The notes beneath the pieces are model-generated. The model made no database searches. It saw only the letters and a list, made by a program, of their open reading frames with translations, and was not told the DNA's origin. The position numbers were made by a program, and so were the translations under genes. DNA of 61,380 nucleotides, filler included, from Sphacelaria rigidula (Eukaryota), in NCBI GenBank assembly GCA_964200075.2. It is 5 parts of 5 records of this genome, joined end to end, with 100 filler letters (N's around TTAATTAATTAA, not from the genome) between each part and the next. Parts side by side here need not be neighbours in the genome. Positions count along the whole stretch, not along the records: positions 1 to 12,197 come from CAXNAA020004015.1; 4 more parts are not named here. One strand, written 5' to 3'. Shown piece by piece: positions 101-59,347 of this stretch (the stretch's first letter is position 1; each line of letters opens with the position of its first letter).

Positions 101-2264
101 CTGCAATAGCTCTGACACAAACTCCCGAAAGCAGGCCCCGACAATCCTCGCCGTTTCCGCTGACCAAGCCACGGTGTAATCACCGGTAGCATCAGGGCTG
201 TCCAGGGATTCTATCCCTGGGTTGATGAGAGAGGTCAGGCGAGCGCACAGTACCGACATCGGGCCAAGACCCACGAAGTCATCCGAGCTCACCAAATAGT
301 CTGTGTCCAGGTGCACCTTTGGACGGCAAATAACCCATCCGATGCCGAGACACCGAAGTGGGTAAGGAGACATGGGGACGGGGGACGGGGGACGGGGGGG
401 GGCGGGCACGGGTTAGTCGAGTACATGACAGCTGCAGACAAGTAGCGACAAGACGAAAAAACCGCAAGTGCTTTTGTCATACGCTCAGGTGTCGAACGAG
501 TCACGACGTCCGGGTGACTGACCACAACAGATCCACGGGAGGGGTTACGCTAGCACAATAATTACACAAACGTTCACGGGAATGTTGGGTAGGGTACTTC
601 CTACATTCGGGTATCGTGGAAAATCAAACTCCAAGCACCCAAAACTTGGGGTAAGAGTTATTGAGATCGTGTTCAACATTATAGTGGGTAGAGCAATGCG
701 ATCGTACCTAGCTATACCCAAGATTTGGGTAGAGTTTGGAGATCGGACCATCGCATCACAAAGTTGGGGAGAGTAAATACCCCGGTATTTCTCCCATCAA
801 CACCCCGTTGCAAGCGTTCAAGTATACCTGAGTAACATGACGTTCGAATGAACACTCAACATACGTTGACATGGGTGGTGTACGGAAAATAGTGGAATAA
901 GCGAACAAACACATATGAAGAAATCATGGCTTAATAAACCCTTTTTGAAACCAAGCACGTACACCATAGTACTACACGACACGGAAAGACGAAACGCAAA
1001 CATCGCCTGTGTACGCAAACGGCAGGCATGGGCGCACACCTGAACGGCATCTTTGGGTAGGTCCACCTCCTGCGCCGTGACCGAGTGCAACCCCAGCAGG
1101 AATGGGGTAGGGCACTGCAAAAGGTCGGCAGCCATGCGCCTCGGTAGCAGGGGCACGTAAACATGGCTCCACACCAAGGGATGCAGCAATGCTCTAGAGA
1201 CGGCGACAAGATCAAGCGAGGAGCGCGATCCAGCGTGTGTAAAATCGCGGGTAAAGGGGGTGCAAAACGACCACAGAGCGATATTTGGATTGCCAGTGAA
1301 GAGCTTGTTTCAGTACTACGAAGACGAACCGGCACCGGAACATCCGACTCGGTGCAACAGAACAGCAGGATACCCCCCCCCCGCCCCTCCCCGTTCTCGA
1401 GATAATGTCCGAAGGTGAATGTGGGGGGTACAAGACAAATACAAGAGACGTGAGAGAAATAAGGGGGAAACATGCGCTGACACGGAAAGTGGACGAAGAA
1501 GAGCACCTAAAGATATACGGAGAGTTGAGAGAGGGGATGCGGATCGAAATACAGTAGTGGGCGGTCTAACTATTCATTCTGAGGCATTTTGTGATTTCTT
1601 CGTCATTGACGATTTTCTTGGGCTCTTTTCGCTTACCACCACTCATCATATTCAGGATCTGAAGGTATTTGTATCCGCTCCACATTACAGGGGAAAAAAA
1701 TTATCTGTACTCAATATTGAGTGACTTACGGGCTGACCGGTGATGGGGGGTCCTGCGACGTTTCAGCCCAGATTCTTACTCTTCGGTATGTTCGGCCGAT
1801 CAAGCCTGACCCAATCATGTTATTTTTTAGATGTACAGTATTATTTTTTCCAAGTTATGCCTACTCATTGCACTAGAGCCGAAAAACTGTGTTTCACGGT
1901 CAATAACACCCTCCTGATGAACGGGATATTTACTCGTTTCGCCCGATAACACCACCTAGCACTGACTTGGGCACCATGTTTTGAGGGTAATCTGTTTATT
2001 GTACCAAAATCTACCGACGCTAGCAATTTCGAGTCCTATCGAAGAGTAGCACGCGAGGAAAACCTCAAAATCCCGCTGAATAGTTAGACGGCCCACTACT
2101 GTACATATGCAAGGCCCGATGGACCACACACAAAAAAAATGAAAATGCGATTTTGAGTGGGGTACCTGGACCTGCCAGAAAGAAGACGTGTACCAGTAAT
2201 CGGGTGGAGGAGAAAGTAGATGCACAGTATTACCCCTGTGGCGAGCAATATAAAGTAGAACTCA

Positions 2265-2325
<61 letters not shown>

Positions 2326-4048
2326 TCGTCCCATCTCTTCTGCGCGCCGGTCTACACCTTTCGGTATATGTGGGCGCACCAGCTGGGGTCACACAGGAGG
2401 AAGATCAACACAGGAGCTTTTTCTTGTCATTTTTTTTTAATACCCCACCTTCCTTCTGCGGTGCTTGCCTTTATTTTTGTATCGCGAGAGGGGTTTAGCA
2501 GTCCCTTTCCCTCGTCGACCGGTGAGTCGCATTTTGTGAGAAAAAAAATCCAGATCGCCCCGAGAATTGAACCCACGACCCAACCGCCAGAAGGGTTCGA
2601 GGTTACCAACTGAGTTACCGGGGCGACCGGCTTCGGTGGCAGAAAATGTGAACTATGCAAGTTGGAACGGGACGCGTTAGAGGGGAAACTGTGGGAAGTA
2701 AAGGAAGGTGGCATAAAACCGTGTGATACATGGTAGCGACGAAAATATCGCAATACTAGGAGCTAGATTGGGGCCTCAGACAGCGAAACAGGAAGGGGAT
2801 AAGAAAAGTAAAAAAGTTTTTGTGGGATGTATAGAAGAAACGTGTGCGTCAAAACGCTCAAGGGGTCTCTATTAGAAGTAGGGACGGTGCTCCGTCTCGA
2901 AAGGGATGCGTGGTTGTCAAATGACCAAGGCACCCCCTCCCCCCGCCCTTTTCGACATGCGTACCAGGTCCACAAGAAGACTACGCGAGAGCGGCCAAGA
3001 TCAGACACAACCAAGCCAGCAGGTACCACCGTGGTCTGCCTGCTCTGCTCACGTAATCAACGATCCTCACCTGAACACCTCTCCCGCCATGGTGAGCAAG
3101 CTCAAACGAGACGACACCATCACCACCTTCCTCTCGCAGAGCAGCGCCGTCACCACCATGCACAGCCGCCGGGGGCTGAGACATCGCAGTACAACAGAAG
3201 GATCGAAATCGACGGCTGCCCACACCCCTCCAAGCCCCCTCGGCAGCCGCGCCGGCGCGGCCAACGGAGTCGCCTTCGATAAGAACGGCGCTGGATGTGG
3301 TGCCGCCAGGACGGGCGACGAAGCAGGCCAATGCAACGGCTCGCTTGTCACTTCGCTCGCTCTCATGGCCCCAGATACGGCGGAATCCAGAACGTTTGTA
3401 CGCTCCACCTCTTGGTTTTCATCCACGACGCCATCGCCACCATCTTTCTCCATTTCACCCACGCCACCACGGTTCAAAAATGGAGCCATAATCTGCTCGA
3501 GTTCCATCCCAGTAAGTCCGGACCACGGCCCGCCAGCACTATCGCTTCCGCCATCTCCGCCACAGCCAACGTTGAGTACTGAGCAGCTCCGACCGTCTGG
3601 CAATACCTCCTCACTATCACCCCCTTCTCCACGGCCATCAGCATCCCAATCGAGCGGTCCACACGCGTAAAAATCAGCAGCATTACGAAGGCCATTTCCC
3701 GCCGGGGTGTTTTGCACGTCTGGATCCCCGTCCGGCAAAATATCATCGACCTTCGCCGACCGACCCCCTGTGATCGCCACCTCCGCTGCCGCGGCCGAGT
3801 CTCGCAAAACGTCTTGGCCGTGGACTCGCCAGTACTCCGACAGCGCATGCCGCATCGCGCCGCTCTCCGGGCGGGTGGACAAGAGGCACAATCCACTGGG
3901 CACGTAAAATACATGTCTTTGTCGCTGCTGCTGGCCGGGCCTGGCGCTGGCGCTAGTGTTGTCGCCACCGCGGCTCACTCGCCTCCCATCTCCGCCATCC
4001 CAGCTGTGGCGACCCCCGCGTCCGTCATTTCCGGCGGCCGGCGGACCA

Positions 4049-4080
<32 letters not shown>

Positions 4081-7000
4081 CGTCGCTCGACCGCCTCCGC
4101 TGCCGTCGGAGGCCGCCCTTGCTACCATCCCGCCCTTGTCGCCCGCTGTGTTTGGGACCACGTGCACAGCTTTCTGATTTGATCCGAACACGACCTTGCT
4201 ACCGCTGCTAGCTACGGCTACGTCCGAGCCGACGTCTACGGCCGTCGTTCCAGGAGATGACGCGGACGAAGAAACTGCTGCGGCGACGGCCGCGGCGGCC
4301 GCCACGGCAAAGTTGGTCCCCGTCCCCGACCTCGTACGGACCGGCGGCGACTTCCCAGCGACCTCTTGTGAGGACATAACCCTGCTTTTGAAGGTCTCCA
4401 TTTCCGTCGACAAGATTGAGCCTTCGTCCGACAAGGTAGGGGAGGCGAGGCAATTGGTGATGGCGCGCGGCTCTGGCGGCGGTGGCCCGCTTGCGTCGGT
4501 GTTGGCGGAGTCTGTTGGTAGCGGCGGTGACGGTACCTGGGATGCCTGGGGCTGGCTGGCTGACTTCTGAGAACGCTCCGTTGCACCTGATGAAAAACAA
4601 ACGTGGCGATTATTACACAGGACAGGGTGAGCAGTGCAAATATCAACGGAAATCAACCGCGCTGAGTCAACGCACCAAGTAGACAGCTTGCAAGTATCTA
4701 CACAACTGATGAAAGAGGTGAGAATAGGAGAGAGTCGAGCCAAAAACAAAAGCACTTCATGAGGCATCAAGGGGTCAGTTGCCAGAGTCCTGCGAACACA
4801 CTGCGACACCAACCTCGTAACACCTTTTTCGACACAGCTCTATTGCCCCTAAGCAACGCGGGTGAGCGGCTCTATTCTCTTCCCCCCCCCCCGATACACA
4901 CACCCCGCGTAGAACATGGAGCTAGCTCACCGAGGAAACTGCGCGCTCGACCGGCGTACGTCGAAAATTTGCTTGCTCCGCCGGCCGATGACGCAGACGC
5001 GGCAGCCCCAGATCCAGCGGTAGACCCGCCGAAGCCAGAGGCCGAGCTACTACTCGCCGAGCTCAATGACGATTTTCCACCGGCGCCCGTCACTGATGCT
5101 CGTGATCCTGCCGAACTGAACATCCCCATGGTCATCTTGAATCTCGACGCTGTCGATGTTGCTGTTGTTGTTGCTAATGTTGAAATTTTCGTGACCTGTT
5201 CCGCCTCGTCCGGCTTACGTTCTTCGGCCTCCGTAGGCACCGCAGTCTGCGCCGCCCCGCCTGCTACTACACCTTGGGAACCACCACCCACCGCTTCACC
5301 ACCATCTTCAGTTGTTGCAGGGGTCGTTGCTGTTGTAGCCGACGCTGAGACGATACCCAACGGCATCGTAGACGTACTATCAGTCACGCTGCCGTCAACC
5401 GCAGCCAAACTCCCACCCTCCACGGACGACACTTTCGGTGCAGCTGTACATGGCTCAGCTGCCGGTGCAGCCGATAGAGGCAAGCCGGGAGTTGTTTCAA
5501 GGCCGACGTGGTCGAGAAAGGCCCCACCCACAGCAGCCGCGGCCGCCGCGGGTTCGTGATGACTACTTGGCACAGCGACTGGTGTCGCTACCGGTGTCGG
5601 CCGTGAGCTCGAGGTATTAACCTTTGACGACGAGTCGGAGACGCTCGATCGACGATCGTCAGCAGCGCTCGCCGTCTCCTCGTGCTGACCGATCCACTGA
5701 GCTACCGGCCTGACAGCGCCAACGGCGAGCGGGGTGGGCCGAGAAACATGGATTGGACGCAAGCCACGAAAGCTACTGGCGGGGATGAAAAAGCCACCAC
5801 AGGGTATGAAAAATCACAGAGATAGGTTCCTGTACACACACATATATATATATATTGAAGATGTACATGACAAGAAAAAGATTTTTTGACGTACTGGTCG
5901 CGCCCAATCACTTCCCGCAAACATATCGCAAAATAAAATAATGGTCCAAAGTGCCGTTTCCATCAAACATTCGCACATACGCATACACACCTGAACACGG
6001 ATAGACAGGCCCCATAGAACATCCCCGCGCCGTTCCTTCCCGGCGCGGCGAACGTAAACAGCCGCGGAGGCGGACACCCGCACGGAGCCGCCTCCGCTTT
6101 GACACCGGCACGCCCCCGGCCAAGACGATTTCCGTCTTCATCCACGCCCTCCGGCGAGCATTGACACGGCCCATGGCCATTGGCCTGGAGCTCGGGGTAG
6201 AAGAATGGTTCTAAACCTTCTGGCACGGCGTCATCCACCGTTGTTCGCCCTACTGCCCCTTCCCTGCTGTTCACCGCTTCCCCAACCTGAACGGAGCGAA
6301 CGCGTGCCACCAGGTGCCTTGCTTAACTCAGATATGATGACTGTGGGAATGACAATTTCTAGAATATTATACCCTTCGCGGTTTTCCATGGCGATCGTAG
6401 TGTGTAGTTACAGTGGTGATTTAGGGTAGTACCGTATCTCAGCGTTTTACAAAATGTGCTTAATCCAAGAATAGGGTATATTCTAGACGGAACCGCGTCT
6501 ACAAGGATAGGAAGATGAAGGCATGCCCAGCTCGTCTGTCGGGTGGGGCGTGGACATGACTCTCATCTCATGAGTAGTTAAAAGATAATCGGCGGAAGGT
6601 GGGTTAGACGAGAGTATGACACTCGAATCGAAGTCGCTGGCGCAATGCCAGTCAACAAGCCATCCATCGAAACTATGGAATCAAAAAGAGAGAAAATAAT
6701 GGCTCTCGATCCTTGAACGGACGGACAGACACACTCGACTGTCGGCAGGGTGCCGCCGACAACAATATATCAACAAAATGCATGCTCCACAAAACAAACA
6801 CAAAACAAACACGCACACAAAGACTGACATACGTGCAGTATCTTCGAAAATAAGACGATGAGATGATCAATTCCATATGTCACCTTGACGTGTGTCACCC
6901 CGTGCTCCAAGCAGGACGAAAACGTCATCATCCACTCGGACACCCCGGCAACGCAAACCCCTTCTCCTCCACCCCCACACCCACCACTACTACCCCCGTC

Positions 7001-10000
7001 GCTACCCCCGCTGCCACACACCGATGTATCCCCCATTTGGTCATGATCCACTTCCCGCCTCGACGCGAACCCCCCGGGGGGTGAATTCAACACCAGCCCC
7101 TCTCCAATAACGCCGCCGTTCGGCAATGACGCAAGACTTTTGAGGTCATCACCCGCCGAGTAGCTGACCCTGCCGGTAGGAACACGGTGCCCGGGAGTTC
7201 CGTTCGCGGCGGTGCCTACATCGAACGATCCAGACGGCGACCGTTCCCCTCCCCCTCCTCCAGAGGAACATGAGCTAGTAGAGGCAGATGGTCGGCTCAT
7301 GTCGCGCTCCTCCGCGGTGATGACGTACGGACGGCGGCCAAACCGTCGAGCCACATGCGGAAGAGAGAGATGGTGGCGGAGCTCGGGCGAGGCTGGCGAT
7401 TTCGGGCGGAGGTATAGCGGGGAAGGGGGGAAATGCCGATGCAGCATGGGGGATCGAAAACGGTGGGCAGTGCAGGACCGGAAGCGGAGGGTTTGCGGAG
7501 ATAGACGGTCGTGACGCATACAAACTTACATTATATAATATAGGGTTTCGGTCATAATTTTCGAATGACGGTGAATCAAGAAACGAGACGCCCACCGTTC
7601 ATCTCGCGCAGAGAAAGTTTGGGAAATACGGAATATTTTCCATGACAATTTTTCAGAAAAATGACACCGAAAGCTTACAAGAAAAACGTACAAACACGGA
7701 CCCGCGAGTTCCACGACACCCGTTCGGCGGATTCATAAACTGAATGGCTGCGCATGGCCGCCTTGGCTAGCCGATTGCAACGATTAGCCGAGTTTGTCCT
7801 GACTTGAGCGACGTTCAGAATATATACGCCTATATTGATCATCAATACAAGACGCAGAAAAAGCCAAGGGGGCAGAACCCGCGGAAATTGCCGTGTGTGC
7901 CGTATGTAGCACCGTCTGTACCTTGTGAGGTACGTATGAGGTTTTCACGTGTCCGTCTTTGTTATTCATTGTTGGCGTGTGGTCGACAGCATGTCGGTAG
8001 AAGCGGGTGGGGTCGACGGTCGTCACCATGCCAAGTAGGCCCCTTGACAAACGCCTACTCTACAGCCAGCAAAAATTCGAGTACCAACGCAGGATGGTCA
8101 CGCCGCCACGAGCATCCGACCAGCGAATACAATTATCATACAAAAAAATGTATCCACCCACGATCGTTACTTCACCTGACCCCAATCCCGCGCCACTCCC
8201 GCTCCTGGAAAGCCTCCGAACAGGACGCGTCGCCGACCTTCCCTCCTCGTTAGACCCGCGGCCCCCCAACGGCGGCCTGTGTCGCGATATATGCGACGGC
8301 AGGTCCATCTTTCTCATGACCTTCTCCAGCACCCACCCACGCGATGCCTCCCACAGGGCCCCGAACTGCGGCCCCGACAACTCCGTCGCTGCGTCAATTG
8401 GCCCGCTACCGCTGCTGCTGTTGCTGCCGCTGCTACCACCACCAAATTCGTCTCCTTCTCCGCCTGCTCCCATTGCTGCAACCTCACCTTTCGCAGGGAG
8501 GGCGAGCGCCGTGCTTCTCTGCACATCGTCGCCACTACCGTTACCGCTGGCGGCGCTGGCGTTGGTATCCCTCCGCTTCTCCGGAGAATTTCCGAGGAAC
8601 GAAAACGGAGATGCGGGCATCTCGTCCGTCCCCAGCAGCTGCGGCGGCGACATCGCTATCCTCACGTAACCCCCGGGGCCAACAGCGCCACCACCACCAG
8701 TCTCTCCGGCTTTAATCTCAAGTCCCAAGTTGCCGGTGGCGTTGCTCGCGGGACTGTCAAACGTGCTGTCGGCTCCCGAGCCGGCGTTACATTCGACGGA
8801 GGGTTGGGGGGGGCGCCGGGCGCGTGCGGGGGACCCCACCGTGAGCTCCTCGCAGAGTTGTTCGTAAATGGGGCTCGCTTGGAATTCCGGGTACACTGTT
8901 GCGCAGAGCTGTTTACCGTGTGAGGATGGTGGAAATGATTTTTGGCCAGGAAGGGGAAGATGGGAAAGCGGGTACGCGGGTAAGTTTGATACATGTTGTG
9001 TACACCACGGAACGAGGATCTCCCGGCACACGAAGTACATCCACGTCTGATGTGCCTGTTAAGCTAGTAGGGTGCATGCCATTACACAAGCACCGAGGCA
9101 TAGAACAGCCAGCACACGTTGTCGTCGAAGATCCGCGTGCATCATCATGCGTACGATAATCTTCCACCCATTGGTGAGTGATGACATACACCAGTAAACG
9201 TTCATCTTAAAACGATAAGGAGAATGGCCGGGCGTGCCTGGAAGCAAGTACAGCTAACCTTCAACCACAAACTTAATCGTGACATACAAACGAGGAGTAG
9301 ACAAAGCAGCATACACTACACACCATACGCCTCACGCTGGGAAGAAGAGCCAACGCAACGGCGTGTCTCAAATTGCTCAGTTATCCCATTTATTAAAGCC
9401 ATACCCCATGCCCGCCAATACATGAAACTTCATCGAACAGGGGGCCGTCAACATTGTCCATACTAGTTGTAGCATATCTGAGGTGTTGCACTACACTCGA
9501 GAGACATCGATTTCGATACAAACCTCTCAGTACGAGCTCGCAAAGAATAGGGGACTCCCCCGTCTCGACTGTCGGTGCGACCTTCTTCCCCGGATGTGTC
9601 TCTCCTCTTTTCCTCCCCCATGATTCTCCTACTAAATTTCGAACGTCTCACACGGAGCAATCCCAAATATCACAACACCAAACCACCAAAACACCAAAAT
9701 TTCAAACTATATAATCCGCTGCCCCAACCATCACCGTGAACACACCTCGCCAGCTGCAAGTCCCGCACATCTCCCGAACAAACCTTTGTGCGGAATCTGA
9801 AGGCCGCCAACATACTTATCCTACAGGCATTTTATCAACCCGCAGCATTTCTACCCGGCCACGTCCGCATCTCCGTCACCCTCACCTTACGCAACACCTG
9901 CCGCTGAACCTCAAGCAACGCCTTCCCGATCGTCACTGCCCGGTCCACATCCACCCCGACCTCCCCCTCGACTTCCCCCGCGCCAAGACCAGCCACCCTC

Positions 10001-11472
10001 CGCCCACGCCCCACCGCTCCCCGCTCCTCCAACAACTCCCTGAGCGACACATAGGCGCTGCACTCCCGCGATAGGCCTATGAACGCGTGAGCAGTGCTCG
10101 ACAGGAAGAAGTCCCATAGGTACGTGGCGGAAGCCAAGATAGACGTCGCCGCGTCGGCTTTGGATTCCACAGGACCTTGATGTTGGTAATGGCGGTGGCG
10201 GCGCTGCGGGGGGGAACGTCTACGCCTGGGGGCGGCGGCGCCGGTGGTGCTACCGCCGCCGTCGTGCTGGTACCCGCTGGAAATATAATTACTGTTGTGG
10301 TTATATCCGCCGACTCTCAAACCGCCGCTTCCAGATATTGAAGGTCCATCGAGTGAGGTTCTCAACGACTGAGCGACATTCTTTCCAGTTCGTGCGGGGG
10401 AGGAAGGGGGAGGAGAGGGACGGCGCGCGCGCGGAGGGGGGGTGCTCATACTCCATTGTTGCTTGCCTCAGCACTTCAACCATTCACCACGCATCCCTTT
10501 CGAGACGAAGCACGGTAGGTGCACACACACAAACACACACGTTTGTGCCTTGTGGCAGTCAATAACATAACAGTTTACCATCTATGCTATACCGTAGGAA
10601 CAGATTTTATTCGATACAAAAGCGAAGACGAAATAGATCAGCGTGTCACGTTTTGGCTCTCAACAAATATATACCTCAGCTTCCCGCACAAATTCTTCCG
10701 CGACTTCCACCAACTCCCTGGGACCCCAGGTATCTGGCGAAAAAAATCGAGAAAGTCAATTATACAGCCTTTCGAAATACCTCAAAGCACTCGCGGGTAC
10801 AATTTCAGGGTTCAAGTCGAAACACGGCGTGAGCTTACGCTGGGGAGTAAATTCCGGCCGTTCACCCTGAACGAGCTTGTAATGAGTTCCCGAATGTATG
10901 TACTGACCTCGAAAATCTGAAAGAGGTGGTCTGCCATACGACTGCTCAGTACGACAAAAAGTAGCCCTTGTACAAACATGTGTGCGCATTCTCTGCTACA
11001 GTTAAATGTGCCCGTTAACGCAGATGATTCCAGCCAAATCGTGTTCAGTTTCTCCGCGAAAAACCCTAGGTTTCCACACCCCTTTACCCTAGGGGGTTCA
11101 AACGAAGGTCTTGGTAAATCCTATCCATATCCTCACGTCTCATCCCTAGGTTCATCTCTCCCCCGCCCCTCCAGAAACTCTCTAGTGCGGCACTGTGCGT
11201 GCTTGGTGTGAGCTTCTCGAAGTTGTCAAGAAACACCCAGCAAACATTCACACACAAATAAGGAAAAAAAGAAAGGCAACACAAGAAATACTCACGGCGA
11301 CAATGGGCATGCTGCTGAGGCTGTTCACGCGTACAGGAGGACTGTTTGATGTACGCCGCACCGATCGCCGAGTCTGGAGAACGACCATACGAGGCTTAAC
11401 GGCCAGCTCCACTTCTCGCCACACCATCAACCACCCGGGTACCTGGCCGGTGATCATATGCAGCAGCATCAC
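101..11472 (-). CDS. Partial multi-exon gene: N-terminal split RGS domain followed by uDENN/cDENN/dDENN (putative Rab GEF); runs off the contig
   Basis: GT-AG exons 11296-11472, 9886-~10380, ~8085-8908, 6884-~7350 (5' edge uncertain), 5991-6286, 4931-5709, 3071-4586, 1040-1193, 101-316. Junctions are phase-consistent except the unresolved ~8085/~7350 junction. DENN motifs: PEGLEPFFYP...FTFAA...FYGACLSVF, YVPSGLCLLSTRP, VVTALLCERKVVMVSSRLSLLT, LLHPLVWSHVYVPLLP...LLQCPTPFLLG. RGS-like helices in the three 5' exons. Confidence 0.85.
1040..1193 (-). CDS. DENN core exon
   Basis: ALLHPLVWSHVYVPLLPRRMAADLLQCPTPFLLGLH, a classic cDENN motif. Phase-2 join to the upstream exon and donor CAG|gtgtgc. 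Confidence 0.9.
1552..2101. mobile_element. Tc1/mariner-type non-autonomous element (MITE) with TA target duplication
   Basis: TIRs CAGTAGTGGGCGGTCTAACTATTCA / TGAATAGTTAGACGGCCCACTACTG, flanked by TA at 1550-1551 and 2102-2103. Confidence 0.85.
2265..2323. repeat. (TG)n microsatellite (SINE tail)
   Basis: Near-perfect TG dinucleotide run with one TA interruption. Confidence 0.95.
2265..2631 (-). mobile_element. tRNA-derived SINE with (CA)n tail
   Basis: The minus-strand head GCCGGTCGCCCCGGTAACTCAGTTGG...GGGTTCAATTC has Pol III A and B boxes. The body is shared with 23495-23720 and 57050-57398. The element ends in the (TG)n tract at 2265-2323. Confidence 0.8.
3071..4586 (-). CDS. Large exon of the RGS-DENN gene (cDENN N-terminal half with low-complexity inserts)
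   Basis: Acceptor tcatcag|GTGCA at 4586 and donor TTCAG|gtgagg at 3071. Encodes FYVPSGLCLLSTRP and VLRCLSPRRLCMVVTALLCERKVVMVSSRLSLLTMAGEVF. Confidence 0.85.
5991..6286 (-). CDS. uDENN exon
   Basis: VPEGLEPFFYPE...PRLFTFAAPGRNGAGMFYGACLSVFR. Donor TTCAG|gtgtgt; phase 2 matches the next exon. Confidence 0.75.
9886..10380 (-). CDS. RGS-domain exon (central helices)
   Basis: SATYLWDFFLSSTAHAFIGLSRE...LLEVQRQVLRK splices in phase 0 (AAG|gtgagg, then aaacag|CTC at 8908) to LCATVYPEFQASPIYEQL, matching the RGS C-terminal 'yPrFl.S..Y' motif. The 5' edge of this exon is approximate. Confidence 0.65.
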
Positions 11473-11957
11473 CTACAAATTTGAAAGACAACCGTTACGC
11501 CGGGCGAGAGGGGGCGCGCGATGAGGTAGGGGTAGGGGGTACATGATGATACAAAACAGACGTACTTATCTCTCACGGTGAAATGCGCGAGGACATCCAG
11601 TGGCGAAACGAACGAAGGACAACGGGAACAACAAAATGTTGAAAATCAAACGACCAGAAACGCTTTCTCAGCTCCTGTACTAGTCTGTTGAAACAAAACA
11701 ACCGAACACTTGCAACTTCAACAAGTGCTCCACGGCAGAATAAACACCGCATTAAACACATACACGAAGACCCCCTTACCCCCCCCCCCCCCCCCCTCCT
11801 TCCTCCTGTAGTGCGGTGTGGGAGAATCTCAACTCCACACAAGGGAGATGATCGTACTACGTAACTTTGAAAGAGTGAGACACCCATGAGGCAGTGTATA
11901 AGCCGTGGCTGTCTCTGCAAATGGCGATACCAGAAAATGAAGCAACTCATTGTAGGC

Positions 11958-12197
11958 TGTCATCCAAATGCAAGATAATCAGTACGATTCGGGCCGAACA
12001 ATCGTAGCAGGATGCAGCTCACCCTTCATGCGACTCGCCTATAACACCACGGCGCTTCGCGCTTGGTTAGGTGCGCGCCTGGTCCGGCGAAAACGCAGCG
12101 TGCTCTGCCCCGGTTTTGTAGGGATGCGAGGTCAATAGTCTCGTGACTATGGCATGCATGATCATGAGTACAACCCCCCACCATCCCCCACCCCCCC
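11958..12197 (+). repeat. Dispersed repeat, probable 3' end of a second retroposon family, ending CATGATCATGAGTAC + C-tract
   Basis: Homologous to 36265-36490. The terminal motif also occurs at 36890-36930 and, reversed, at about 36668-36706 and 48299-48337. Confidence 0.7.
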
Positions 12198-12297
12198 NNN
12201 NNNNNNNNNNNNNNNNNNNNNNNNNNNNNNNNNNNNNNNNNTTAATTAATTAANNNNNNNNNNNNNNNNNNNNNNNNNNNNNNNNNNNNNNNNNNNN
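12198..12297. other. Artificial contig-joining spacer (44 N + TTAATTAATTAA + 44 N)
   Basis: Identical 100-nt spacer recurring every 12296 nt. Confidence 0.97.
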
Positions 12298-36789: not shown

Positions 36790-36889
36790 NNNNNNNNNNN
36801 NNNNNNNNNNNNNNNNNNNNNNNNNNNNNNNNNTTAATTAATTAANNNNNNNNNNNNNNNNNNNNNNNNNNNNNNNNNNNNNNNNNNNN
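36790..36889. other. Artificial contig-joining spacer
   Basis: 44 N + TTAATTAATTAA + 44 N. Confidence 0.97.
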
Positions 36890-36949: not shown

Positions 36950-39345
36950 GGGAGCTTGTTGCTTGTCTTGGTTGTTTGACCATTGACCACGCATTCCTTT
37001 CGAGACAGAGCGCCATTCCTTCTCCGTATGGAGACACCTCCAACATTTGGGCGCTCACTACATTTCTTCCATACATCCTCTCTTTCCTGATTCGCCGTCT
37101 GTAGCCACCATCTATTTCCTAGTGTAGGCATTATTTTCTCCCTACTGTCTAATGCATCAAACGATTTCCTGCCACCTTCGTTTACTTCCCGCATTTCCGT
37201 CTCCACCACGTCCCGTTCCTCCTTGTACACACTCACATTTACATTCAGCCACTAGATGAGTTCTACCCTCTATTGCTTCGCCGCAGGGGTAGCTCTGTGC
37301 ATCTACTTCCTCCTCCACTCGACTACTGGTATACCTCTTTTTTCTTTCTGGTAGATCCAGATCCCCCACCCGAAACCGCAGTTTCCATGTTTTCGAGGAG
37401 TCCATTGGGATATGCAGATATGATTTCATCCCTATTCCCTCTCTCAATTCTACGTATATCTTCAGGTGTTCTTCCTCGTCTACCTTCCGTTTTAGCGTTG
37501 ATTTTGCCTTCATTTCTATCATGTCTCTTACTTTTGCCTTGTATCCCCTGATTTCACCTATGGACATTATCTCGTCTTGGTTTCCTCCTATGTCCGTCCA
37601 TACCCTCTCAACTACGCCATCCCACCATATTCCAGCCTGCTCTTTCGTCACTTTCTTCCATACCGTCCCATCGACTCTGGCTGGCAGTCTCCTTCTCTGC
37701 ATATTCCTTAGCTATATTGTCATTTCATTTTCCACATGTCTCTGTTTGTTTCAAGTGGGTATAATCCCAATTCTGCTCTCAAAATTGTATTACTCGTCGC
37801 TTTCCACCAACTTCGCGTTCCCCTCCCATATTTCTCCAGCACATTCTAGCATTGGTACAGTCACAATTCATCAGATTACATCTCTTAATCCTAGTATCGA
37901 GGTGCGAATCTCGTCGTATTACGTCCATCCTGTATATATATATCTTACCCTCTTTCATTACTTTATTCATGTGTGTATCCCAAGAACAGTTTTTCGAGAT
38001 CTCTACACCAAGGTATGTATACTGGTTTACAACCGGCAGCTTCTCTTCTCCCCGCTTCCCTTTGAACTCTGCCGGCTTTTCCTTACCTTCTTTACATACG
38101 AGTACGGCGCATTTGTTATCGTTCGCTGTCACGATGCATTTCCTAGTGTATTCTAGCGCCTTCTCTATTTGCTTCTGCATTCCTTCTGGTGTTTCTGATA
38201 TCCTCGCGGAATCATCCGCGAGCATCAATCCCGATACCATATCTTCTACCTTGACTCCTTGATTTGCTGCTTATATTGCTACTATTATATCAGGTCACTA
38301 CTAAATACCTCGAACAAAGTGGGTGATAGCGTACATCATTGTGCAACTCCTTGTAAAGTATCAAAATATTCCGATGTTTCCCTGTCTAGCATAATAGCCC
38401 TTCTGGCACATTCTGTCATCTTCATCATTCTCCACATTTTTCCTCTGATCCCAGTTTCCCACATCTTTTTCCACGGGCCATTTCTCCATACTGTATCATG
38501 TGCCCTTTGTAGATCTAGAGAGAAACAATACGTTGTTGGCCTGGCGTCTTTCCTACCTCGAGTAATCTTACCTGATAATGTTTACACGTGGTCTACGCAA
38601 CTACGGTTCGGTCTAAAACCTGCTTGCCCCTCGCTGATTTTTCTTCCTTCTCTCGCGTCGTTCCCACTCTAGCATCCAGAAGCTTACGGAATGTTTCACA
38701 CGTCGGGCAGGTCATGAGCTACAGTACCTGAAACAACCAATCGAAGAGAACTCTCCGATCAATCGTACAAAAATACAAGACATGTGGCAGTAGTGTCCGA
38801 GAAGCCAACGCATTACCTTCCCGCAACACGGCGTGCTCGGCATCCATCGCTGCGTGAGCTAATACGGAAATAGTGGACAGATGAGCTTGCTCATGATCCC
38901 GATCAGTACTCTAACAAGAAGTAATATCCACGTACTTCGTGAGCTGTGCGACGGTGGAATTTTTTTCCTGCGGTGCTTAGTAACGTTATTCCGGCATGGT
39001 TCCCAGGGTCAGCCATATCTAATTTCTTGAAAAGGTTTACTATTTCTCCTTCTCTCCACCTCTTGCGTGTGCACTCATTTTCCCACATCCAAGTATACAG
39101 CATAACTATCACGGTAATCGTTCCCTCTTCCCCGTACTTTGAAAATTCATTCGCTATTCTGTCTGCCCCTGCTGCCTTTCCCCTTGACGCCAACTCTGGT
39201 AAATTCACTCTGCTATCGTTTGGAGCCACGATTCTTCCGTTTTGACGCCTCTACAGTTGCCTCTGCCCACGCGTTGATTTCTTTATCAAATTCCGTGTCG
39301 AACCTCTTGTTAGTTTTTGGTGTTCCTAGTTTGCGGTAGTGCTCT
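36950..39345 (-). mobile_element. Non-LTR retrotransposon (LINE) with decayed reverse transcriptase, 5'-truncated
   Basis: RT motifs across stops and frameshifts: KAAGADRIANEF, GEIVNLFKK..DPGNHAGITLLST, QAGFRPNRSCV, LDLQRAHDTVWRNG, QGVAQ*CTLSPTLF, GLMLADD, YTYLGVEI. Confidence 0.92.
38697..38956. mobile_element. Short hAT-like element (same terminus family as 20244-21446) inserted in the LINE RT
   Basis: Left end CACACGTCGGGCAG, right end CTGTGCGACGGTG, and an 8-bp TSD with one mismatch (GAATGTTT / GAATTTTT). RT-like sequence continues on both sides. Confidence 0.7.
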
Positions 39346-49085: not shown

Positions 49086-49185
49086 NNNNNNNNNNNNNNN
49101 NNNNNNNNNNNNNNNNNNNNNNNNNNNNNTTAATTAATTAANNNNNNNNNNNNNNNNNNNNNNNNNNNNNNNNNNNNNNNNNNNN
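49086..49185. other. Artificial contig-joining spacer
   Basis: 44 N + TTAATTAATTAA + 44 N. Confidence 0.97.
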
Positions 49186-54911: not shown

Positions 54912-57900
54912 TCACGTAGCATCTCGTAAGTGACTAAGTATTTCATAATCAGGTGGGTCCGATGGCTCCTGACTGGTCGATGCCGGCAAGCGATGACGGT
55001 TCGGCGTTTCGTAGGCGGGTGGTGGGGGATCAATCGTCGCCGCCACTGGAGATGCTGGACTCTGCTGGGACGCCTTCTTATTCCTTGTCAACATTGTACC
55101 TACAGTATGGGGAAGGCGGGTGGGGGAGGGCGGGCAGGCGGGGGGAGGTGAAATGGGGGTGGTCTTCAACACATGACTCTTACTATACGTGGCGTGCGAT
55201 CAACATCTCACTACTAATTCATTAGCACGTATACGAGGAAGAGCATTACCCACAAGATTGTTCACCGTTAACACGGGATCTTACAAATTGGGGATGGATC
55301 TTACAAATTGGGGATGGATCTTACAAATTGGGGATGAGAAACCCGGAAAATTCTAACTTTCGTATCCACACCAAATCTTCGAAACATGGTTCCATTTCTT
55401 CACCTACTGAAAACTATTGGCACCTGCTCCACGCGATATAAATTTGGATTCGATCACCAAAATGTTGGGGTCCTAGGTGAAAAAAACAATTTCGGAACCA
55501 TTCTGGCGTCCGTTCGGACACCCGGAATTCCCCAAAATTGGTTTTTCACCTAGGAACCCAAGATTTCGGCGATCGAAATCCAAATTTCTATGGCGTGTAG
55601 CAGTAGTCAATCGCTATCAGTAGGTGAAGAAATGGAACCATTTTTTGGATATTTGGTGTGGATACGGGGATTTAAATTCTCCGGGTTTCTCATCCCCAAT
55701 AAATGATCCATCCCCAATTTGTAAGATCCCGTGTTCGTTGCAGGCAGAGTCCATGCAGAGCGAGCATCCAGTCTAAAGCTCCTGGGCCATGCACGCCACC
55801 TCTACCAGACGTCATCAAAACACGAGGTCTGCACGTAACGCTTGCGGTGAGTGCGGCCCAACAGCATGAAAAACGCACACACCCACCGCTAATCGCTGTT
55901 TTTGCTAACAAATTCGACCATCAGGTCTATTGAACAACGCGTCGGGCACTGATTCTACCCTGAGCACATTCAAACACGGCTCCGAACTCTCAAACCATGC
56001 ACAGCGCGGTCTCTCGCTCGGTAGGAGTCAAATAAGTCGAATATCCGGCAAGCAAACCAGTATCAGACTGACGGTACGAATACACACACCGTCGACCTTG
56101 TATCGAATGTAGAATCTTTAGAGTTGGGAGGACTAAGCACTGTGTTTTATGAGAGCAGCGGAGACGTACGAACCACGTATCTTGCTCACTTTCGTAGGAA
56201 GGCAGATGTCGTCCAGAAGAAGTCTCAGCTGCTGGTACTGCGAAGAATTGCGAAGAATTGAAGGCACAAAACACGGATTCGGAACGCGTAGGATCAATAC
56301 CGGGCTTTGATGGTGCGTAAGAAACTATTCGAATTATGCAGACGTGTGCTCCCATGTTGTAAATCGACGAGACCTTCTACTGTACAAACCTTGGCACCTG
56401 ATACTGCGAAATGTCATAGTGTCACTCTACAGTGGAGTTCGTGGCGGTGGTTTGAGTCGTCATGTGCGCTTTTACGTTGCTAGTGGTGCGGCCTTGAAGC
56501 CGAACCAACCATTCATATCGTGTGACTTATGAGCTTCTGCGATTTCGCCACACGATACATGTGCACACCGAGGAGACGAGCGTACTTTGCGCACCTTTAA
56601 AGTCAGTGGCAGGAGCGTTTTTGTCCCGTCGCCCTCTGCAGCATAGACCTGAAGCACATAACATGGAACAGCCCGGTCAGGAGAATTGTCGGCAACCACT
56701 CGTAGAGAGAACGAAAATGACCCATCAGAGCTGCACCGTCTCCCGCGTGATAACATTCGGGTGAATCCACGCGCCTGCCAGTCGCCGCCTAACTGTACAC
56801 GTGCCTTCAATCAAGTGGACGAAACAGTGGACGCCATTCGAGGATCTCATGAAAATTTCCCTCTCGTCAGACACACGATGAGTTTAATTACTCTGCGGGC
56901 AATATCAACGTGACCCACGGAAAAGAATATATCTTTCGTTTCGCGAAGTGCTTCCAGGCACATCAATCGTGGCCCAGAAGAAGTGCGGAAATATCAACAA
57001 ATGCGTGGGTGTTTCTTCCACTACCAAAAAAAAAGCAGCGCAAGAAATAGTGTTGTCCCATCTATTCTGGATGCCGGTCTACACCTTCCGGTACATGTGG
57101 GCACACCAGCCGGGGTCACACAGGAGGAAGGCCAACACAGGAGTTCGTTGTCTTTTTTATTTGTTCCAGTTCCCAAACTTCCTTCTGCGGCGCTTGAATC
57201 TATGTTTTATCGCGAGAGAGGTTCAGTAGTCCCTTTCCCTCGTCGACCATTGAGTCGAATTATGTGTACCCACGACACCGTCGCTCTCCACTGTTTGGCA
57301 TTGTGTGAGAAAAAGTCCCAGATCGCTCCGAGATTCCAACCCACGACCCAACTATGAAAAGGTTTCGAGTTTACCAACGGAGCCACCGGGTGACCGGCTG
57401 TTAGTCATATATACATAGTATGCCCATGTAAGCTCGCGACACTCACATAGCCCCAAGAGAGCCATGAGGACGAAAAGACCGCCGCCACTCGCGATAGTGC
57501 CAATTTCCCAGGTCGCGAGATCCCCAGAGTCACCCTCAGAAGCAGGTTCCAGGATCGGGGATGTAATAGGAGCACGTGAAAGAGCAATAGGGCTGGGCGT
57601 TGCTTGCACTGTGGGCGTTTTCGTCGCTGTAATCGGTGAAGGGAAGCTGCCAACCAAGCTGGGAGTCGGCGTGAGTAGCGGAACAAAACCATCTTCATTT
57701 CCCGACGGAGGCAAGGTAGACAAACTAGGGGTCGGGGACACAGCTGGAGACGGAATGGGAGTAGTAGGGCTGGGTGTTGCTTTCACTGTGGGCGACGGCA
57801 TCTCGGAGTTCTCCAGCGTCTCGAACTTGACCGCGAGAAAATCCTGGCTTCCCGCAGCTTCAGTCCACTGTCCATAAGTGTTGCCCCCGAAGAACAGATG

Positions 57901-59074
57901 CCCTTGTGAGTCAAATCCGGCGAACTTAATTATGTCACCACTAGAGGTTCCATCCTGATATACCAATAGTTCGTCGCCGGTCTGGCCGTCGAGCACAACG
58001 GCGACCATATCGTATGATGATGTCCCCTCCAGCCCACCGGCGCCCACGACGTAACCTGTCACGGGGTCAACTGCTACGGCATTGAAGATCGATCTCCCTG
58101 GAAAGGCGTACGCCCCCGAGTAGTACCAGATCTCGGCTCCAGTTTGACCGTCAATTTTCAACACGGTCGCATGTTCCGCGATGTGTCCCTGCAAGTTCTC
58201 TGCACCCTCACCCCCAGCTACGTACACGTTCCCGTCGGCATCCACATCAACACTGTTTAGGGCGTCAGATGTTAACGAAAATCGGTCAAACTCCCAAATA
58301 ATCTCCCCGTCGTCCCCCCTAAGCTTCTTCACCGTAATGGCCAAATCGTCATCCCCGGTATAGCCCGCAGTCACTACGTCGCCAGCAGGATCTACCTTTA
58401 TTCCGCGGGTAATGTCTCGGAGAACCGAAGACCCTCCTTGCACGGTCCAGAGCGCGGCTGCAGTTGCCCCGTCCAGCTTCCTCACGAACCAGTCGAAATC
58501 ATTTGCAGCACCCTTACCGGGAACCAACTCATTGCTCGTTTCCCCGAAAAGAAAAACGTTGTCGTCGGTATCTACGGCCACATCCAGAATAGTCGTAATA
58601 CCGGGCCACAGTAACCCAGAGGAGCTCTCCAAGTCGTCGGCAGCATCCTGATACGTCCAGATTTCGTCGCCCGTGTCCCCGTCGAGCTTGACCACAGCCA
58701 TATCCCTTTTTTGGTTCGAGTTAACGCCGTCCCAATCCCCTTCTGTAAACCCACCCAGTACGACATTGCCTTCGCTATCTACGGCCGCCGCATTGATTAC
58801 ATCCACAGCTGAAAGGGCAGAGCTATCGTTCCATGTCCATAGCTTAGCACCCGTCAAGCCAGATAGTTTGACCGCTTGGAAGTCTCCCGATAGTTCACTT
58901 ACAAACGTGTCATCGTCCAAACCAACAGATACAAAATTGCCGAACCCCGCTAAAATCAGGTTCCCAGTCGAATCCACGGCACCATCCTCGACACCTTCTG
59001 TTGAGGCTAGCCATCCCTGATACCGCCACGTCTCCTGTAGTCGCACCGTGCCGGCAGCCATACGTGCGATGTAC
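54912..59074 (-). CDS. Type I membrane protein: beta-propeller repeats, Pro/Thr/Ser stalk, TM helix, Cys-rich juxtamembrane segment, PY-motif tail
   Basis: Large exon 57447-~59074 with repeats AVDxxGNVxxxG...VVKLDGxTGxExW, a PSPT stalk and TM IGTIASGGGLFVLMALLGL. Then phase-1 exons 56595-56648 (CLCCRGRRDKNAPATDFK), 56190-56237 (VPAAETSSGRHLPSYE) and 54912-55099 (STMLTRNKK...PPPPAYE...PPDYEILSHLRDAT*). Signal-peptide exon not located. Confidence 0.8.
55270..55735. mobile_element. Foldback MITE, same family in opposite orientation, 4-bp TSD CGTT
   Basis: Reverse-complement match to 54458-54885. CGTT at 55266-55269 and 55736-55739. Terminal 20-bp unit GGATCTTACAAATTGGGGAT is triplicated. Confidence 0.85.
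57050..57398 (-). mobile_element. tRNA-derived SINE copy in an intron
   Basis: Full-length similarity to 2324-2631, including the tRNA-like head. Confidence 0.82.
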
Positions 59075-59347
59075 CTAGTCTTTGGCCAACGTGTGGAGCC
59101 TGTATACCGATCTTCAACTGTGTGGATTTAGTCAGGCAGCACCAGCAGGGGAAGTGCGCATTGTTTGGACCCCGGGCTCAAGAAGTCCACGCTACAACTT
59201 TTCAGGCAACATATCGGAGGGTTAGCTCGGGGCTAGCGCGATTTAGCTCCTGTATAATGTCATCTGCCCCTACGGTCGACTGCGCTTCTAAGCATTCGCG
59301 GGATGTCACAAGCACGACAACATACCACCCGGTAGGGTCGTAGTAGG

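Follow-up and report, generated by a model that had tools for sequence, protein, structure and literature searches.

The analysed DNA of Sphacelaria rigidula (61,380 nucleotides, hereafter the window) carries on its minus strand, from position 11472 down to 101, a large part of a gene in which exons coding for RGS-like helices are followed by exons coding for a DENN module. The RGS-like exons and the DENN exons belong to one transcript and one reading frame and encode one polypeptide, in which an RGS-homology (RH) region, divergent and interrupted by low-complexity inserts, probably lies N-terminal to the DENN module. An RGS-DENN fusion linking G-alpha shut-off to Rab activation had been proposed in a preliminary description made from the sequence alone; the fusion of RGS-like and DENN exons was confirmed here, and the shut-off is doubtful.

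Gene model and transcript evidence

The gene model consists of nine exons with AG acceptors and GT donors (GT-AG introns) which splice to 4875 nt, or 1625 codons, with zero stops, and all the exon boundaries read AG-exon-GT once ambiguous bases are shifted. The model is open at both ends. An AG acceptor precedes exon 1, which implies at least one further exon upstream, and a GT donor follows exon 9, which together with a contig extending 1271 nt farther implies that the gene runs out of the window. The window is best explained as containing the central portion and most of the 3′ portion of a single large gene of the brown-alga type.

Evidence of splicing was obtained from sequencing runs X1, X2 and X8, none of which is on record as RNA; they are called RNA-type here, and their contigs are spliced where those of the DNA run X5 are contiguous, X5 being unspliced over 2890-8440, 8414-10507 and 10487-11878. 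The X1 and X8 records are equal in length and are possibly one data set filed twice. The joint 8176/7392 is found directly in contigs of all three runs, which defines an intron at 7393-8175, and the frame is kept across it (…G/CC giving Ala, followed by SPELRHH…). This settles the junction that the preliminary description had left open between ~8085 and ~7350. Joints 5990/5708 and 4928/4583 are likewise found directly in contigs of X1, X2 and X8. Record 6 of X2 (4268 nt) runs from 6284 via 3071 to 100 and then 1271 nt past the window, and other spliced contigs of the three runs span 8414-8908, 8176-8440 joined to 7036-7392, and 9978-10380, with the contig terminating at 10380 extending ~1390 nt farther upstream (~1.2 kb beyond exon 1). 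Joint 11296/10380 was placed with the help of P0005, whose matching part shows 100% identity to the window and which reads …SSMPIVA/NVAQSL… from exon 1 into exon 2.

It follows from the in-frame contig joint 8176/7392, the open frame of 1625 codons and the collinear single proteins of three brown algae described below that the product is one polypeptide. Two adjacent genes, one RGS-like and one DENN, which merely appear joined, would find some room at joints 9886/8908 and 6884/6286, based on contig overhangs of 70 and 74 unlisted letters, the frame and the orthologs, the latter reading …RHVLRK/LCASVYPDF… unbroken across the position of the former joint. Such a pair is nevertheless hardly credible, as contigs of three runs join exon 3, which bears the last RGS-like helices and a linker, in frame to exon 4, where the DENN region starts, the 1625 codons lack stops and three species have single gene models.

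The peptides on which the preliminary description relied are all present on the minus strand where it had put them: GWLMVWREVE in the open reading frame (ORF) 11248-11472, ATYLWDFFLSSTAHAFIGLS and LLEVQRQVLRK in ORF 9835-10467, and LCATVYPEFQASPIYEQL in ORF 8060-9058. Judging by their AG-exon-GT boundaries, the spliced contigs and the relatives of exon 2, these ORFs are real exons rather than chance ones, and the limits 101, 6884 and 11472 proved to be true exon ends.

Orthologs in other brown algae

The best relatives come from Ectocarpus and Scytosiphon, in agreement with the stramenopile setting assumed earlier. Three proteins of Ectocarpus are retrieved with the cDENN exon: P0001 (2403 aa), P0003 (2173 aa) and the partial P0002 (993 aa). 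In the cDENN part their identity to the window is 81-83%. In tblastn comparisons P0001 and P0003, which represent two Ectocarpus species, match all nine exons in order, and P0011, a partial Scytosiphon promiscuus protein of 1717 aa, is collinear with exons 1-7 (model aa 1-493 at E 2.4e-76), so that the RGS-like and DENN arrangement is found in single gene models of three other brown algae. A search of 1.84 billion representatives with exon 2 gave 14 relatives at E <= 0.001 (best 6e-30), most of which are short fragments; 12 of the 14 reach E <= 1e-10. A word-based protein search with exon 2, which covered proteins of 290-2000 aa, returned nothing, and a profile search with alignment A2 gave only three full-length relatives, all already known. 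In precomputed Pfam annotation the ortholog proteins carry either DENN alone or no domain at all; the RGS-like region was missed by automatic annotation, as had been anticipated.

The orthologs possess ~440 residues upstream of the exon 1 equivalent. Their N-terminus includes a PDZ-like stretch (Pfam E 0.008-0.03, under the cut-off; within P0003 aa 1-450 and P0011 aa 1-440) and a further RGS-like region, hereafter region 1, which reads …ARLMFWLEVQVLFEM…MSKVYDKFFRPGSGFYVHEL…, then, after an insert of ~160 residues, …FRASQEKVEETLTAGCFYRFKTSPW… and scores against PF00615 (RGS) above region 2, that is, the region encoded by exons 1-3. The segment upstream of exon 1 also holds the first helix of region 2 (…VPFERIMAEQELRD). 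Judged by these matches, the full order in the orthologs seems to be PDZ-like, RGS-like 1, RGS-like 2, DENN. Within the 61-kb window neither tblastn (best E 0.56) nor a hidden Markov model of this segment from three orthologs, compared with the six frames (best E 1.5), found the PDZ-like stretch, region 1 or the initial helix of region 2.

P0001 has ~200 extra residues precisely at the position of the exon 2/3 intron (…RHVLRK / LCASVYP…). Two ORFs elsewhere in the window, 37057-37711 (-) and 25131-25669 (+), show 42-66% identity to P0001 residues 644-850 (tblastn, summed E 3e-47 and 1e-31) and match no Pfam family at E <= 0.01. Because of these matches to repeated ORFs, residues 644-850 probably represent a transposon ORF common to both genomes and wrongly taken into the gene model.

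Identity of the RGS-like region

That the 5′ region is an RGS domain is probable from sequence comparison, though not proven, and region 2 is rather likely to have the RGS fold. Ortholog stretches spanning both regions match PF00615 as the sole Pfam family at E <= 10. Residues 110-665 of P0011 give E 0.0013 and 19.5 bits, with the best stretch at profile positions 87-116, which corresponds to the third element of the preliminary description (LLDMQRHVLRKLCASVYPDFQAS.., the exon 3 equivalent). Residues 111-682 of P0003 give E 0.0012 and 19.7 bits with the best stretch at 25-74, in the upstream region, and residues 117-654 of P0001, without the last helices of region 2, give E 0.06 and 14.2 bits with the best stretch at 25-73, again in the upstream region. 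The matched pieces fall in profile order, 25-74 in the upstream region and then 87-116. RGS is also matched by 3 of the 17 members of alignment A1. In a language-model search of the ESM Atlas with P0011 residues 420-665 the three best named clusters are all RGS (0.86, 0.83 and 0.82), with Oomycota being the commonest phylum in two of the three, and the ten best family-bearing matches belong to one clan.

Several results weigh against this assignment. The RGS label of the preliminary description holds as the sole Pfam family on the orthologs and falls short at the curated gathering cut-off, the ortholog scores being 19.5-19.7 bits vs 23.9; moreover, ~14 of the ~19.7 bits stem from the upstream region outside the window, as the P0001 stretch at 14.2 bits indicates. 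Scanned singly, the three RGS-like exons of the window match zero Pfam families at E <= 1, and P0012 residues 1-194, which cover the middle and end of region 2 alone, have no Pfam match at E <= 10. Atlas scores below 0.9 are leads only, given that one third of shuffled proteins reach 0.8 with ten-of-ten agreement in a calibration made on whole proteins. Alignment of region 1 with region 2 by hhalign was not significant (E 0.28) and in the wrong register, and sequence searches of the PDB yielded no RGS chain at E <= 10. An AlphaFold2 model of both RGS-like regions together, built from a nine-row alignment with long inserts, reached a mean predicted local distance difference test (pLDDT) score of 44. 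With so poor a model, the structure searches are uninformative: Foldseek against the PDB gave no match at E <= 0.001, and a wide VIA search gave generic helical bundles, with no RGS chain among the 50 matches listed. The Atlas search with exon 2 alone produced no usable match.

The candidates from the PDB sequence searches, SRP68 at E 0.13 and the Gly-Ser linkers of antibodies, were rejected.

These shortfalls would be expected if the 5′ exons coded for a conserved helical linker specific to brown algae, with its likeness to RGS being due to chance in helix-rich, biased sequence and the protein being simply a long DENN Rab activator. We regard this as unlikely, as the same family out of ~24,700 was chosen by two unrelated methods (as the sole Pfam match at E ~1e-3 and as the top Atlas clusters) and the matched stretches lie at the correct profile positions and in the correct order (25-74, 87-116).

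The DENN module

Profile comparison shows a cDENN domain (PF02141) to be present in the gene. Of the window ORFs, 818-1309 matches it with 50.2 bits (E 3.7e-13) and the end of 3067-4839 with 24.1 bits (E 4e-5), both exceeding the cut-off of 23.4, and the orthologs reach 92-96 bits (E ~1e-26). The cDENN label of the preliminary description is thereby borne out, and its uDENN and dDENN labels are not matched by any profile: PF03456 and PF03455 gave zero Pfam matches at E <= 1 with either the window pieces or the full orthologs. Both labels are presumed here solely from collinearity with the orthologs. The two profiles may be hidden by divergence or inserts, since collinear conserved blocks exist. 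The closest solved chains to the DENN part are DENND1B (3tw8, E 2.2e-11) and DENND1A (6ekk, E 5.7e-10). Both are guanine nucleotide exchange factors (GEFs) for Rab35.

Putative function of the RGS-like region

Presumably, canonical RGS domains carry the motif A..IY..[FY][IL]...[AS]...[VL]N[LI], whose Asn/Ser (Asn128 in RGS4) we take to contact the switch region of G-alpha. Aligned by eye, peptide ATYLWDFFLSSTAHAFIGLS fits this motif without gaps. The presumed contact position is occupied by Gly in every aligned relative covering the site (the window reads IGLS, and the others LGLA, LGVA or VGVS), and in the upstream RGS-like region of the orthologs by His (VHEL). RGS-homology domains lacking that Asn/Ser usually bind their partners, without acting as GTPase-activating proteins (GAPs). 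The Gly and His residues thus point to a binding module rather than a GAP, and binding to G-alpha or a Rab appears likelier than the shut-off suggested earlier.

In the explanation we propose and consider fairly likely, the helical region would have the RGS fold and would bind a GTPase in a regulatory or targeting role rather than act as a GAP. Its partner might be activated G-alpha, as for the RH domain of RH-RhoGEFs, or a GTP-bound Rab, as reported for the RGS-type domains of D-AKAP2, SNX13 and SNX14. Binding of the partner would recruit or switch on the DENN module, which would then load a Rab at that membrane with GTP in place of GDP. Both partners are plausible because G-alpha is present in Ectocarpus according to the available text of PMC3971589, and because there is a precedent of Rab binding for SNX13, SNX14 and D-AKAP2.

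The presence of G-alpha in Ectocarpus would equally suit the version of the preliminary description, in which a working RGS GAP speeds GTP hydrolysis on G-alpha, so that one protein would shut off G-alpha and also activate a Rab; the RGS leads, namely PF00615 as the sole family and the RGS clusters of the Atlas, would also fit it. That version appears improbable in view of the Gly in region 2 and the His in the upstream region, where the motif, aligned by eye, has the presumed Asn/Ser contact. A binding module thus remains our preferred explanation.

Comparison with known systems

RH-RhoGEFs (p115-RhoGEF, PDZ-RhoGEF and LARG) combine an RH domain, in some cases preceded by PDZ, with a GEF for a small GTPase in one chain, the GEF being activated when G-alpha binds to the RH domain. 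Their (PDZ)-RH-exchange factor layout resembles that of the brown-algal protein and makes them the best analogy for its working mode; a cluster with PF09128 (RGS-like, 23% of its members) also appears at rank 23 of the Atlas search. Unlike in RH-RhoGEFs, the exchange factor here would be a DENN module acting on Rab rather than a DH-PH module acting on Rho, with no DH or PH family matched at E <= 1 in P0001, P0002 and P0003, so the likeness is one of analogy and not of family membership. By this analogy the brown-algal PDZ-RH-RH-DENN protein could be a G-alpha-activated Rab GEF, the Rab counterpart of RH-RhoGEFs, although we hold this specific version to be unlikely. If it were true, one polypeptide would connect receptor or G-protein signalling directly to a switch of vesicle traffic, for instance in the polarised secretion of wall material.

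Divergent RGS-type domains are also found in other trafficking proteins, such as D-AKAP2 (AKAP10), with tandem RGS-like domains, and SNX13 and SNX14, with a PXA-RGS-PX order. According to the available text of a preprint (PMC13596360), these domains bind Rab4/Rab11 in D-AKAP2 and Rab5/Rab11 in SNX13/SNX14 and are not mainly G-alpha GAPs. The orthologs seemingly share two tandem RGS-like regions with D-AKAP2. In contrast to these proteins, the brown-algal one yielded no PXA, PX or PKA-anchoring features, and its RGS-like regions are attached to a putative Rab GEF, so that a relay from Rab to Rab or from G-alpha to Rab would result.

Compared with canonical RGS domains of the RGS4 type, the conserved hydrophobic motifs agree in order and spacing and PF00615 is the sole Pfam match; the differences are the score below the cut-off, inserts of ~30 to 80 residues between helices in the relatives, and the Gly at the presumed contact position. 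With DENND1A/DENND1B (connecdenn) and other DENN Rab GEFs the protein shares a cDENN profile well over the threshold and conserved flanking blocks in the expected order. It differs from them in the very long low-complexity inserts inside the module, in having no Pfam uDENN or dDENN match, and in having an N-terminal RGS-like region instead of RUN, PLAT, PH or WD40, partners named in the preliminary description.

We consider the domain combination to be a new arrangement of known kinds. No description of an RGS-DENN protein was found in a literature search that did not extend to supplements or to the principal overview of RGS architectures (Anantharaman et al. 2011), where a prior mention is possible, and the words RGS and PDZ do not occur in the available text of a DENN survey (PMC3521125). 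The ortholog proteins are already public as unnamed products, so the novelty lies in how their architecture is read.

DENN proteins form one of the major classes of Rab activators, and how they are switched on is mostly unknown. An RGS-homology module in a DENN protein, if real, would provide a testable way in which a Rab GEF could be controlled by a heterotrimeric G protein or another Rab, and would place such control in a multicellular lineage with little-studied signalling. It would also mean that the domain annotation of brown algae overlooks domains chopped by low-complexity inserts.

Exons of the gene

All the exons lie on the minus strand and the matches to orthologs were obtained with tblastn. 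Exon 1 (11296..11472, 177 nt, model aa 1-59) contains VMLLHMITGQVPGWLMVWREVE, an early helix of RGS-like region 2; it matches P0003 residues 451-489 with 77% identity (E 1.5e-13) and has an RNA-type depth of 8.9 in bin 11229-11629. Exon 2 (9886..10380, 495 nt, aa 60-224), at whose position 10380 spliced contigs stop precisely, codes for low-complexity sequence, the middle helices of region 2 (ATYLWDFFLSSTAHAFIGLS), an insert and LLEVQRQVLRK, and matches P0003 residues 559-658 (E 2.4e-20). Exon 3 (8176..8908, 733 nt, aa 225-468) provides the last helices of region 2 (LCATVYPEFQASPIYEQL), followed by a low-complexity linker and a conserved block with GPQFGALWEASRGWVLEKVMRKMDLPSHISRHRPP, and matches P0001 residues 1071-1130 (E 1.6e-14). 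This block, located at 8228-8380 (-) between the RGS-like region and DENN, is 51-57% identical to the Ectocarpus orthologs, and the flanking linker is not conserved.

Exon 4 (6884..7392, 509 nt, aa 469-638) includes a linker and then the presumed start of uDENN, VSEWMMTFSSCLEHGVTHVK; its donor AAG/gtgaca at 6884 was placed from the frame and the ortholog alignment. Exon 5 (5991..6286, 296 nt) continues the presumed uDENN (…DAVPEGLEPFFYPEL…, …RLFTFAAPGRNGAGMFYGACLSVF) and matches P0003 residues 1057-1144 with 52% identity (E 3.3e-15), the corresponding contig piece being 5990-6284 joined to 5708. Exon 6 (4931..5709, 779 nt) represents a low-complexity insert within the DENN module and is covered by contig pieces 4928-5708 joined to 4583 and 5990. 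Exon 7 (3071..4586, 1516 nt; contig piece 3071-4583) codes for HVFYVPSGLCLLSTRPESGAM and, beyond a long insert, for the first half of cDENN (…RCLSPRRLCMVVTALLCERKVVMVSSRLSLLTMAGEVFR), and exon 8 (1040..1193, 154 nt) for the second half (LVWSHVYVPLLPRRMAADLLQCPTPFLLGLHS…), the latter fitting the 157 unlisted letters of contig record 6 and matching, with 81% identity, P0002 residues 775-827. Exon 9 (101..316, 216 nt; contig piece 100-313) follows cDENN with the presumed start of dDENN and matches P0003 residues 2006-2081 with 55% identity (E 3e-19).

Other features of the window

Two ORFs of a PsbP-like gene lie at 18040-20013 (-), upstream of the DENN gene and on the same strand, one of them matching Pfam PsbP below the cut-off (E 0.0027) and the other reading ...YSSPDGTFALRYPAAFKAF.... 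Such a gene fits a photosynthetic host, and its position sits poorly with a very long 5′ intron of the DENN gene. An open frame of 591 codons at 57355-59127 (-) has a beta-propeller-type match to Pfam PQQ_2 (E 1.3e-5, 25.5 bits vs the cut-off of 27.6).

Paired runs of 44 N, 12 bases apart, occur every 12,296 bases, at 12198-12297, 24494-24593, 36790-36889 and 49086-49185, and look like regular masking rather than assembly gaps. In the introns and flanks of the DENN gene, the segments 1605-3208, 10427-10827 and 11630-12020 have a summed X5 contig depth of 10^4 to 10^6 vs ~60 in exons. These segments are repeats of high copy number, with a (GT)n run near 2257-2331 and a poly-G run near 11780-11800.

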